Source of the DNA: a virus
Taxonomy: Duplodnaviria; Caudoviricetes
Length of the DNA stretch: 64,000 nt
IMG/VR virus record: IMGVR_UViG_3300031953_000004
Span: 1-64,000 of that record
Strand: one strand, 5' to 3'
How positions within the stretch are numbered: position 1 is the stretch's first letter; every line of letters starts with the position of its first letter. Shown here in pieces: positions 118-4,531 of this stretch. The notes under the pieces are model-generated. The model had not been told where the DNA came from. It searched no databases and saw only the letters and a list, made by a program, of their open reading frames with translations. A program made the position numbers and the translations under genes.

Positions 118-252
118 ACTATTAGCCACCAATCGCCACAGCTGCTAGAAATTTTTTATTTTTTGGTATCAGGTTGTTTGTTCATATTGCAGACACATCT
201 GCTGCAAAATTTTTTATTTTTCTGCCAATGCGGATTGTTCGACATAATGACG

Positions 253-260
253 TATGTTTG
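253..260 (+). promoter_or_regulatory. Bacteroidetes sigma70 -7 element (TATGTTTG) driving the tRNA-like unit
   Basis: Matches TAnnTTTG, has a TTG ~17 nt upstream, and ends 5 nt before the first tRNA-like element. Confidence 0.65.
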
Positions 261-265
261 TATTT

Positions 266-362
266 GCAGAGGTGTCGAAATTGGTAGCCGAGCGAGATAC
301 TCGTGTGGAATAGGTTATAAGCTGGTAACCCCATTTTGTAGGTTCGACTCCTGCCCTCTGTA
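266..362 (+). ncRNA. tRNA-like RNA (Leu/Ser type) lacking an anticodon loop
   Basis: Acceptor GCAGAGG/CCTCTGT, D arm TCG-AAATTGGTAGC-CGA, T arm GTAGG-TTCGACT-CCTGC, discriminator A. The anticodon arm is reduced to CGAG-ATA-CTCG, the variable arm is ~30 nt, and there is no encoded CCA (CAA instead). Confidence 0.75.
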
Positions 363-367
363 CAAGG

Positions 368-448
368 TCAATTGGTTGGAGAGTCCGACAGGTAATGGCT
401 CATCGAGGTACACGATGGTAATGGGTTCGAATCCCACAGACTGGTTGA
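368..448 (+). ncRNA. Second degenerate tRNA-like element
   Basis: T arm TGGG-TTCGAAT-CCCA, anticodon-like stem CATCG/CGATG with 7-nt loop AGGTACA (GTA centre, no U33), possible D arm GTC...GGC, GU-rich terminal stem 368-377/439-448. Confidence 0.5.
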
Positions 449-456
449 TAACATAG

Positions 457-484
457 ATCCCGGGGCCTCTCGGGATTTATTTTT
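457..484 (+). terminator. Intrinsic terminator closing the tRNA-like unit
   Basis: ATCCCGGG-GCCT-CTCGGGAT followed by TTATTTTT. Confidence 0.75.
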
Positions 485-540
485 ATAAATAAGTTGGTAG
501 ATGGTTGCGACATATTGACGGAATGTTATATATTCGTGAA

Positions 541-2291: not shown

Positions 2292-3926
2292 ATGATAAAA
2301 ACCTTATATGGAGACGATGCCAGACGGAAACTGCTGTCTGGCGTTAGTCTTATCGCGAGAGCAGTAAAAGTAACATTAGGACCGAGTGGCCGGAACGCCC
2401 TTATCCGGAACGAGTTTGAGCGTAGGCCATTCTCCACCAAGGATGGGGTCACGGTAGCCGGACAGATTGGGAGTGAAGACCCCTTTGAGATGGTCGCCAT
2501 CGAGTCGATGCAGGACATCGCCAACAATGCGGATATGAAAGCTGGAGATGGTACCAGTACCGCTACGATCTTGGGAGAAGCTATCCTTGCAAGAGGTGTG
2601 GAATTCCCAACGCACCTCAACCTACTTGATATAAAAAGAGGGATTGACGAGGCTGTATTGATTGTCGTGGAGCAGCTGCATAAACGTGCGGTGATCATCA
2701 AGGATGATGATGCCAAGCTGAAACAGGTGGCACTGATAGCCTCCAACTACGATGAGGAATGTGCGGACATTGTATTTGATGCCTTTCAGGTAGCCAAGAA
2801 CCAGGGGATTGCAAGGATAGCACGATCACGTACGTATGATACCTATCTGGAAACCATCGAAGGGATGGTATTACCTATGGGGTACCGGTCAAGGGCCTTT
2901 GTGAACGACTATGAAACCGATACGGCCGTATTGAAGGAACCGTATGTGTTTATGACCAACACCAGGGTCAGTGATGTATCTGACAATATGGACTTCTTGT
3001 TATCACATATTGCGGAGCACGACCTCTCGCTGATGATCATCTGCAAGGAGATCGACCCACATATCCTTGCGATGCTTGCCGAGGAAGCCGCAAGGAAGCG
3101 CATCAATGTATGCGTATGCAGGGCACCGGGTTTCGGGAACGAACAAGAGGAACTGCTGAGAGATCTGGGAGTGATCCTTGGGAAACAACCGTTCATCGAG
3201 AACGAGGGATTAGAGTTTGACAAGCTTGCCCACGAAGATATTATGGGGCATATCCCACAATGTCTGGAAATCACGGTAGGAGAACAAACCACCGCTTTCA
3301 AGGAGGCTTTCGTCGATGAGGCTGTTGCCAGTGATATCGAGAAGGCGATCGAGGGAAGGGCGAACAAGCTTCGGGAAGAGGTGATCAATGCCAAGACCCC
3401 TTATGAGATATCTTTGTTGCAAGCGAGGATATCAAGGCTTACGGATGGTATCGCTGCTATCTTCATCGGTGCAAGGAGCGATACTGAATATACCGAGAAA
3501 CAAGCGAGGATCCAAGATGCGCTTTATGCGATCAAGGCAGCTTATCAGGAAGGGGTGATCCCCGGAGGTGGAGCTGCATTGCTGTCACTTTCCAAGCTGG
3601 ATTTTGATTCAAAATCAGGAAATGAGAGTATCGCCTATGGCGCAGAAATTGTCTTTAAAGCTATCCGGGAACCGTTCTTCCAGATATTGGAGAACGTAGG
3701 AATAAATCTTAATGAAGAAGTTATTGAAGAATGCGAAAGAGAATTCAATACAGGCTTTGATGCAAAAAATCGAGGTGTTCAGCTCAATATGATCGATGCG
3801 GGCATTATGGACCCTGTGAAGGTAACACGGGTGGCTTTGGAAAATGCTGCTTCGATTGCCGGAATGATGCTGACCACGGAATGCCTGGTGGTGAATACCA
3901 AATCTTATAACCCCCACGAAGAATAA
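2292..3926 (+). CDS. groEL: Phage-encoded chaperonin GroEL (Cpn60)
   Basis: 544 aa; AVKVTLGPSGRN, TKDGVTVA, AGDGTSTAT, APGFG, IPGGG and DPVKVTRVALENAASIAGMMLTTE motifs; no GGM tail. Confidence 0.97.
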   Translation: MIKTLYGDDARRKLLSGVSLIARAVKVTLGPSGRNALIRNEFERRPFSTKDGVTVAGQIGSEDPFEMVAIESMQDIANNADMKAGDGTSTATILGEAILARGVEFPTHLNLLDIKRGIDEAVLIVVEQLHKRAVIIKDDDAKLKQVALIASNYDEECADIVFDAFQVAKNQGIARIARSRTYDTYLETIEGMVLPMGYRSRAFVNDYETDTAVLKEPYVFMTNTRVSDVSDNMDFLLSHIAEHDLSLMIICKEIDPHILAMLAEEAARKRINVCVCRAPGFGNEQEELLRDLGVILGKQPFIENEGLEFDKLAHEDIMGHIPQCLEITVGEQTTAFKEAFVDEAVASDIEKAIEGRANKLREEVINAKTPYEISLLQARISRLTDGIAAIFIGARSDTEYTEKQARIQDALYAIKAAYQEGVIPGGGAALLSLSKLDFDSKSGNESIAYGAEIVFKAIREPFFQILENVGINLNEEVIEECEREFNTGFDAKNRGVQLNMIDAGIMDPVKVTRVALENAASIAGMMLTTECLVVNTKSYNPHEE

Positions 3927-4186
3927 TGAGCACAATCAAAAAGAAGGCTTTATTGCCACCGGATGCTATTGTCGTAGAAGTGAAAAATAGCTCACAGATA
4001 CAGGAGGTAGCTTATGTACCAAGCATCAAAATGATGTACGTGAATTTTAAAAGCAACAACAGCGTGTATTCATATACGCCCGTGGAGCAAAAGAAATTCG
4101 AAACAATGATAGATTCCCCGAGCATCGGGGCCTATTTTCATAAGCATTTTAAAAAGAGCAGCGAACTGAAAGTGACATCAATATAA
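3926..4186 (+). CDS. KTSC-domain protein
   Basis: SSQIQEVAY...YVNFK-NNSVYSY..V....FETMIDSPSIGAYFHKHFK matches the KTSC pattern. Confidence 0.85.
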   Translation: MSTIKKKALLPPDAIVVEVKNSSQIQEVAYVPSIKMMYVNFKSNNSVYSYTPVEQKKFETMIDSPSIGAYFHKHFKKSSELKVTSI

Positions 4187-4243
4187 ACGAACATTTGGAC
4201 AAATATTGTCCAAATCCTAATGATAATTAAAAATATAAGAATA

Positions 4244-4531
4244 ATGGCAAAATTTAAAAAGAAACCAGTAGTGATTGATGCAATTACTTTTGAAGAGTTT
4301 GTACAATATGGAAAAGATAACGCTGAACATCTTGTAGATGGGATGCCTTGGTCTTTTGATTATAATGGATATTCTGTAACTCACGAAAATGACGAGTGTT
4401 ATCTAATACCTACACATCAAGGCACCTCTGAATTCAAAAAAGGAGATATGCTTATAACTCAGGTAGATGGAGAAATTTATCCCTGTAACGGAAAATTATT
4501 TAAAGAACTTTATACAGAAGAAAATGAGTAG
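4244..4531 (+). CDS. Widespread phage protein of the KKPVVIEA...YPCK.DIF..TY (PGDYG-like) family; possible nucleotide sponge
   Basis: KKKPVVIDAI ... IPTHQG ... GDMLITQVDGEIYPCNGKLFKELY; AT-rich relative to its neighbours; start 4220 or 4244. Confidence 0.7.
   Translation: MAKFKKKPVVIDAITFEEFVQYGKDNAEHLVDGMPWSFDYNGYSVTHENDECYLIPTHQGTSEFKKGDMLITQVDGEIYPCNGKLFKELYTEENE

Follow-up and report, generated by a model that had tools for sequence, protein, structure and literature searches.

Phage tRNA genes are now viewed as counter-measures to host tRNA-cutting nucleases, and phage tRNA look-alikes that cannot decode are usually dismissed as pseudogenes. The stable RNAs species 1 and 2 of phage T4 are anticodon-less look-alikes. 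The Lak megaphages of Prevotella encode tRNAs with "enigmatic introns" (Devoto et al., 10.1101/356790). In the crAss-like phage phi14:2, early intergenic regions give rise to abundant non-coding RNAs to which no function has been assigned (10.1101/2020.03.07.982082). E. coli LeuRS requires A73, A15-U48, G18G19, A20a and the D/T-loop pairs of its substrate and does not require the anticodon or the variable arm, and tRNA-Leu variants that have lost both the anticodon and variable arms are still active with the enzyme (PMC9976931). Among these variants, as that paper summarizes them, are the minimalist tRNA-Leu molecules of Larkin et al. 2002, which lack both arms and are still leucylated by E. 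coli LeuRS (PMC9976931).

Here we compare with these systems a ~220-nt unit from a crAss-like phage. The original prediction described it as a dedicated transcription unit in which a host-type promoter and a clean terminator enclose two tRNA-like folds of equal standing, neither with a usable anticodon loop. Its candidate roles for them were a decoy for tRNA-targeting nucleases, a synthetase sponge and an aminoacyl donor.

Results

A non-coding unit in a divergent control region

The window, that is, the whole stretch of DNA analysed, is the first 64 kb of a source record of 82,432 bp. The record has a 127-bp terminal repeat, a common assembler k-mer, so we read the genome as circular and its start as arbitrary. 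The source is a crAss-like phage, because its relatives carry the crAss capsid domain PF23898. Long ORFs cover 88% of the genome in the standard code, with no gain under any stop reassignment; since coding density is not raised by recoding, a suppressor tRNA for a recoded genome was rejected. As the original prediction had expected of tRNA finders, no tRNA was called by default ARAGORN, either in the window or in the genome, or by Rfam at gathering scores in the window. Default ARAGORN found no tmRNA in the whole genome either, and within the 64-kb window no Rfam family of any kind matched at gathering scores.

The divergent control region occupies positions 10-540. It is flanked by a minus-strand gene whose start is near position 9 and by the first plus-strand gene, at 541, and the unit lies directly upstream of the latter. 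Its features are the following (loci from other contigs carry L numbers):

240..252, + strand: copy 1 of the 13-nt near-dyad CGACATAATGACG, a family-conserved candidate promoter/operator element
253..260, + strand: TATGTTTG, a sequence match to the Bacteroidota -7 box TAnnTTTG
266..362, + strand: element 1, a tRNA-derived RNA without decoding ability (best Rfam match sub-threshold; homologues in L017 and L019)
364..446, + strand: element 2, a degenerate tRNA-derived remnant (T-loop motif)
453..485, + strand: intrinsic terminator with a 12-bp stem, a 4-nt loop and a T run (hairpin at 453-480, then TTTTT)
505..534, + strand: second promoter copy, for the plus-strand gene at 541 (13-mer at 508-520; TTGCGA-18 nt-TATATT)

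A 120-aa ORF at 94-456 was rejected as a protein: public assemblies have no gene call there and the homologous locus L017 has no open frame. Because no frame stays open through the L017 copy, the unit is non-coding, and the proposal of a dedicated unit running from TATGTTTG at 253-260 to the terminator at 453-485 holds.

Other features of the region were recorded. The first plus-strand gene (541-861) encodes a small protein of 106 aa with many Cys-x-x-Cys motifs and no Pfam match; similar Cys-rich small proteins head the array in relatives with or without the cassette. For a 106-aa ORF labelled "nucleotidyltransferase" and five other nearby ORFs, the sole Pfam match was a KTSC domain protein at 3926-4186. 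Positions 36-135, immediately upstream of the minus-strand gene, form a family-conserved non-coding block with a hairpin ending in CGGACTCTCTTTTTT, a C-run/G-run hairpin and the motif CTATTA(A/G)CCAC; this block could serve as a 5' leader or be related to an origin. At 140-225, AAATTTTTTATTTTT occurs in two tandem copies (149 and 207), and between them lie a promoter-like TTGTTTG and then a hairpin, GCAGACACATCTGC, with a T run. The 140-225 segment resembles the leftover of a duplication that took in the promoter and the opening bases of element 1.

The unit is bracketed by two copies of a family-conserved candidate promoter element

The Bacteroidota sigma-A promoter consensus consists of a -7 box, TAnnTTTG, and a -33 TTTG some 19-21 nt upstream. 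The -7 box at 253-260 is perfect, and the nearest upstream TTG (235-237) is just 15 nt away. TAnnTTTG occurs 47 times on both strands of the 82-kb genome, against about 40 sites estimated for a 6-base pattern. Because the 8-mer thus occurs at about the frequency expected by chance, the case for a host-type promoter leans on the 13-mer beside the box, a near-dyad that is conserved in the family and that the box follows.

The pattern CG[ATC]CA-N3-TG[ATC]CG is found at only two places in the 82-kb genome, 240 and 508, and so brackets the unit. The 13-mer heads the plus-strand array in L003, L006, L008, L016, L017 and L018, and a TAnnTT(A/T)G box comes after it in every relative with a readable intergenic region. 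In L008, the same 13-mer is followed by TATGTTTG, and a long ORF opens with an ATG 4 nt beyond the box; at the level of sequence, this arrangement before a leaderless ATG supports a promoter function. The 13-mer may be the promoter or operator of the lead operon. In the window, transcription would start at about 265/266, that is, at the first base of element 1. Across the family, the near-dyad reads CG(A/T)CA-N3-TG(A/T)CG and occurs nowhere but at the head of the plus-strand array; because its positions 3 and 11 never differ from each other, it always falls short of a perfect dyad. The 13-mer is duplicated wherever a small cassette is inserted. The two promoter copies of the window have diverged from each other, which argues that the cassette is not a very recent insertion.

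At the other end of the unit, the 12-bp hairpin at 453-480 and the T run after it bear out the predicted clean terminator. Terminator-like sites in positions 1-1500 number 6, against 1.0 expected.

Element 1 has the upper half of a tRNA and no anticodon arm

The motif GGTTCRANTCC occurs at only two sites in the 64-kb window (341 and 424), both on the + strand and 83 nt apart, where 0.32 are expected. The first lies in element 1. Its acceptor stem (266-272/355-361) has 7 bp, GCAGAGG/CCTCTGT, with a G1-U72 pair, and is followed by the discriminator A362 (A73); U8, G9 and G26 are present. The D arm at 275-291 (TCGA-AATTGGTAG-CCGA) is of the Leu type and the T arm at 338-354 reads GTAGG-TTCGACT-CCTGC. 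In the place of the anticodon arm stands a mini-hairpin, CGAG-ATA-CTCG (293-303), with 4 bp and a 3-nt loop. It is followed by an extra arm of 34 nt at about 305-334, with a GGTTA/TAACC core and a GTGG/CCAT extension. No hairpin of at least 4 bp with a 7-nt loop exists in any register within 292-338.

The best Rfam tRNA-clan match on element 1 is tRNA-Sec, at 17.8 bits and E = 1.1; the Rfam thresholds are 29 bits for tRNA and 47 bits for tRNA-Sec. Element 1 therefore has the acceptor, D and T arms of a tRNA and neither its anticodon arm nor its score. In a single-deletion scan, ARAGORN called 53 of 2115 variants, mostly as Tyr(AUA) on a poor stem and only once as Thr(GGU). The fold energy is unremarkable against shuffles (z = -1.60; z = +0.10 for the L017 homologue), and the whole 232-nt stretch is not unusually stable (z = -1.54). 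We conclude that element 1 is a real tRNA-derived gene; having lost its anticodon arm, it would be unable to read codons.

Two other architectures were rejected. A joint fold of both elements was no better than shuffles. A tmRNA or two-piece tmRNA was discarded, as the ARAGORN tmRNA mode returned nothing in positions 1-1200 and Rfam gave no tmRNA match at E up to 10.

Element 2 is degenerate

Element 2 contains the second T-loop motif. Its T arm (422-436, TGGG-TTCGAAT-CCCA) has a 4-bp stem and a canonical loop, and is too specific to be a chance occurrence, so element 2 is tRNA-derived but degenerate. A hairpin at 400-418 has a 7-nt loop, AGGUACA, with G33 and C37, and thus lacks U33 and a purine at 37. 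The small hairpin at 376-388 is not accompanied by a GG-bearing D loop. The terminal stem (366-375/437-446) contains 3-4 G-U pairs and 1-2 mismatches, and shuffled sequences fold at least as well (z = +0.73). ARAGORN calls element 2 only at an 80% threshold and called none of 1260 single-deletion variants; no tRNA-clan Rfam match appeared at E up to 10. No locus that we fetched holds a homologue.

Element 2 is best read as a decayed tRNA remnant in the same predicted transcript. Thus, of the two tRNA-like folds proposed, element 1 stands, with good acceptor, D and T arms, whereas in element 2 only the T arm is convincing. Their treatment as equals must be given up, since no homologue backs element 2 and its features suggest a remnant. 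No decoding fold was found for either element, in agreement with the prediction that neither has a usable anticodon loop.

A homologous cassette occupies the same slot in a second crAss-family phage

We used the phage GroEL (2292-3926) as an anchor to collect relatives, drawing on IMG/VR, on JGI metagenomes and on a larger collection of assemblies. Four same-strain contigs from other samples reach the unit and are all unchanged; being identical, they carry no population-level signal. The GroEL proteins of the next relatives are at most about 62% identical (L002, 62% by tblastn; at most 60% in the protein search). The contig of L002, the closest relative, ends exactly at a remnant of the homologous terminator, and no record of its proteins was found elsewhere. 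The contigs of four further GroEL relatives (P0004, P0012, P0018 and P0021) stop before the intergenic region. L003, L006, L007, L018 and L141 lack the cassette, and their control regions, of about 200 nt, contain a single promoter copy. In L016 (1690-1900), the same slot is filled by another insert, about 190 nt long and not tRNA-like, with two promoter copies around it and its own terminator; the slot seems to accept varied small cassettes.

L017 comes from an 82,833-bp contig whose GroEL is 58% identical to that of the window, and it carries the cassette in the same slot. Two promoter copies surround a single homologue of element 1 (4146-4250), and a terminator follows directly. Scored as a tRNA, the homologue reaches 15.7 bits, below threshold. 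It contains a 4-bp hairpin with a 7-nt loop, GUCGCAA, within a stem that exceeds the canonical length; a second long arm follows. In a quick GroEL tree, the window and L017 fall into different subclades, each nearer to relatives that lack the cassette, so the cassette has been lost several times or has moved between related phages.

A third homologue, L019:262-148(-), comes from another phage contig, one with genes for a UvsX-like recombinase and a thymidylate synthase. Its tRNA score is 47.3 bits. An insert of 42 nt separates its D arm from its anticodon arm, which is canonical (TTCGA-CTGGTAA-TCGAA). In its single-deletion scan, ARAGORN called Thr(GGU) in 150 of 3,195 variants, and L019 may be a working tRNA. 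Element 1 has the heptamer CTGGTAA at 322-328, at the same 9-nt (5+4) distance from the T stem as in L019, and lacks the 5' stem strand. The three compare as follows:

Pair 1:72: window G-U; L017 G-C; L019 A-U
D-stem pairs: window UA, CG, GC; L017 GC, CG, GC; L019 GC, UA, UA
T stem: invariant in window, L017 and L019
Discriminator: A in window, L017 and L019
Length of centre: window 46 nt; L017 54 nt; L019 65 nt

The acceptor and D stems thus show compensatory changes across the three, while the centres cannot be aligned. The window and L017 are identical at 22 of 27 positions in the 5' arm region and at 22 of 25 in the T arm and acceptor 3' strand, and their flanking intergenic DNA cannot be aligned. 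Because L017 is the one crAss-family homologue, covariation among the non-decoding forms amounts to one compensatory pair (10:25) and one G-U/G-C change; the remaining compensatory pairs all involve L019. The covarying homologues named as a check on the prediction therefore exist for element 1, whose whole cassette recurs in L017 with compensatory changes, whereas the loci fetched hold none for element 2. The sequences point, as the simplest history, to descent from an insertion-bearing phage tRNA, in which the crAss lineage would have lost the anticodon arm and kept the upper half.

Wider searches recovered little else. A BLAST search of the unit and the first 3 kb against 50,697 phage records gave no match. 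When the T loop was fixed as in the window, the exact T-arm plus acceptor pattern had no match in IMG/VR; with two loop bases left free, it matched only L019 and L020, the latter on the same 82,833-bp contig as L017. A 5'-half pattern in IMG/VR matched L020 only. A loose gapped pattern gave more than 119 matches, mostly chance, of which 5 passed the stem filter. None of 185,579 species genomes matched the T-arm plus acceptor pattern, and hence no cellular donor tRNA emerged.

Inserts and missing anticodon arms in other phage tRNA-like genes

In an IMG/VR sample, ARAGORN left 39 of 124 matches to this T-arm pattern uncalled, a few of the 39 being cut by a contig end. Many of these tRNA-like genes (L178, L197, L242, L019 and others) have inserts of 40-60 nt. 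L178 and L197 have a common insert, with CCGTCCGC-TTTTCTCC and GGGTTACTTAG; CAGCA..TTTTTCTAT is common to L019 and L242. Such inserts may represent families of short tRNA inserts. Three tRNA-like genes in other phage contigs, likewise uncalled by ARAGORN, have Leu-type bodies. L269:7591-7667(-) has the canonical loop TTTGGGA, which would give the anticodon UGG, and a long variable arm. L267:10131-10228 and L268:1797-1892, from unrelated phage contigs, have no canonical anticodon arm.

Element 1 carries a complete E. coli-type leucine identity set

We compared the 5' half of element 1 with 1,499 phage tRNAs. The best match was a tRNA-Leu, and 10 of the 15 top matches were tRNA-Leu. Element 1 has the E. 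coli-type leucine identity set, with A73 (362), A15/U48 (280/337), G18G19 (283-284) and A20a (286), and also C2-G71. Because the set is complete, LeuRS is the most concrete candidate partner, and it is plausible that element 1 and its L017 homologue would be LeuRS substrates unable to decode.

Discussion

What the tRNA-like folds are for can be read in several ways. The main rival to a maintained RNA is a decaying relic: an ancestral phage tRNA cassette in which both elements are pseudogenes heading for deletion and the conserved arms reflect past selection. We regard this as possible, though it is not the reading we favour. It would account for the missing canonical anticodon arm, the sub-threshold Rfam scores, the unremarkable fold z-scores, the clearly degenerate and homologue-free element 2 and the absence of the cassette from several close relatives. 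However, the genome is compact, with about 88% under long ORFs, and yet two diverged lineages have kept some 270 nt in which the promoter copy is intact and the terminator strong. The arms are also far better preserved between the window and L017 (22/27 and 22/25 identical) than the unalignable centres and flanks, and the relic needs the coincidence of an independent anticodon-arm loss in the same slot of two lineages. It is very unlikely, in our judgement, that the folds are only signals for RNA processing or stability (RNase P/RNase Z handles), or a regulatory or origin part, with no mimicry. The setting speaks for this, as the unit lies in a divergent control region beside conserved non-coding blocks and repeated T-rich promoter elements, another small cassette fills the same slot in a relative (L016), and early intergenic regions of phi14:2 yield abundant non-coding RNAs (10.1101/2020.03.07.982082). 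Yet a terminator follows directly, leaving nothing downstream to process, and with the start of transcription placed at the 5' end of element 1 there would be nothing upstream either.

We also weighed the idea that element 1 is a cryptic working tRNA, in which removal or looping-out of an insert restores a Thr(GGU)-type anticodon arm. L019, with the same acceptor and T arm, scores 47.3 bits and has its canonical arm after a 42-nt insert; element 1 has CTGGTAA at 322-328, spaced from the T stem as in L019; and, were 309-321 taken out, TGTGG (304-308) and CCCCA (329-333) could form 4 of 5 pairs. Introns have been reported in tRNAs of Bacteroidota phages (10.1101/356790). The phage T-arm matches missed by ARAGORN (39 of 124), several with large inserts, fit as well. 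Against this, restoring the arm would take the removal of two non-contiguous segments (293-303 and 309-321), Thr(GGU) emerged from one of 2115 deletion variants while the commonest call was Tyr-AUA on a poor stem, and the heptamer is absent from the L017 homologue. No RtcB or RNA ligase was found in the phage, and we know of no splicing route in bacteria for such short inserts. The standard code and the absence of any other tRNA from the phage also speak against a decoding role, and we consider a working tRNA improbable here.

Taken together, the conserved arms, the shared slot and the intact signals suggest that element 1 is probably a maintained non-decoding tRNA mimic in its own cassette, kept for its acceptor and elbow half, a reading that we hold with about even confidence. 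The pattern of conservation argues that the part under selection would be the acceptor, D and T half and not the anticodon region. The cassette would consist of a promoter, an RNA and a terminator placed between two copies of the promoter of the plus-strand array. Transcription would begin at or beside the first base of element 1, and host tRNA end-processing and CCA addition would then mature its RNA. The RNA would act via proteins that read the acceptor and elbow half of a tRNA. We favour a role as a mimic of, or sponge for, a host tRNA-directed factor, such as a toxin or defence nuclease that recognises tRNA without the anticodon. Of the roles in the original prediction, which the evidence narrows only a little, a decoy for anticodon-loop nucleases is unlikely, because the anticodon region is not conserved.

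A bolder form of the mimic reading is that element 1 and its L017 homologue are the founding class of leucine-chargeable, non-decoding phage tRNA mimics, made from the lead promoter to soak up a host factor; we think this unlikely. Equally doubtful are its two corollaries, that the factor would recognise the acceptor/elbow half or the long variable arm and that it could be a tRNA-directed defence nuclease or a toxin that modifies tRNA 3' ends. Septu is reported to cut the variable loop of tRNA-Tyr. If such a class exists, the Leu-type elements with aberrant centres in L267 and L268 would be further members.

The case argues that at least some tRNA look-alikes may owe their retention to the half of the molecule that takes no part in decoding. 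The grounds are a stand-alone cassette, a phage with no other tRNA, and an upper half conserved with compensatory changes while the anticodon region is free to vary. The cassette is also a compact test object for mimics in crAss-like phages, with about 100 nt, one promoter and one terminator. If it is a relic after all, it is an ordinary by-product of tRNA gene turnover.

Comparison with known systems

Element 1 resembles a class II tRNA-Leu (RF00005) in its 7-bp acceptor, U8, 3-bp D stem and loop AAUUGGUAG, in G18G19, the UUCGAxx T loop, A73, C2-G71 and A15/U48, and in its five-helix layout (acceptor, D, "anticodon" position, variable arm, T). It differs in its anticodon arm of 4 bp with a 3-nt loop, its 34-nt variable region, its score of 17.8 bits and the lack of a default ARAGORN call. 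With the minimalist tRNA-Leu substrates it shares A73 and the D/T-loop tertiary pairs. Those substrates are laboratory constructs used with the E. coli enzyme, whereas charging of element 1 by a Bacteroidota LeuRS is hypothetical.

With the insertion-bearing Lak tRNAs, whose reported cases come from Bacteroidota phages, element 1 has in common an oversized centre and being missed by bacterial tRNA finders; with L019 it shares the acceptor, the T arm and the CTGGTAA heptamer. The insertion-bearing tRNAs and L019 show a canonical anticodon arm once one insert is set aside, but element 1 and its L017 homologue do not.

The tRNA-like domain of tmRNA is likewise an acceptor and T-arm mimic without an anticodon. 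Element 1, in contrast, lacks a tag reading frame, pseudoknots and a G3-U70 pair. A tmRNA does occur in phi14:2 (NC_021806, L264; Cellulophaga phage phi14:2): at 4031-4500, ARAGORN finds one with the tag peptide GSSVQKLAMVA, and its Rfam score of 46 bits (E = 2.6e-16) is just short of the threshold of 47. The tmRNA lies between g004 and g006 in an unannotated stretch for which NC_021806 has no RNA annotation. This stretch appears to be one of the highly transcribed non-coding intergenic regions of the phi14:2 paper, active from the earliest time sampled. phi14:2 also has a second T-loop motif, at 1830.

Further counterparts are the look-alikes in phage tRNA clusters (tRNA-pseudo/tRNA-other), which are also tRNA-shaped, non-decoding, phage-encoded and sometimes conserved. 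Element 1 differs from them in standing alone: its cassette has a promoter copy and a terminator to itself, and the phage is without any other tRNA gene. The cassette is thus a further phage tRNA look-alike and not a new category.
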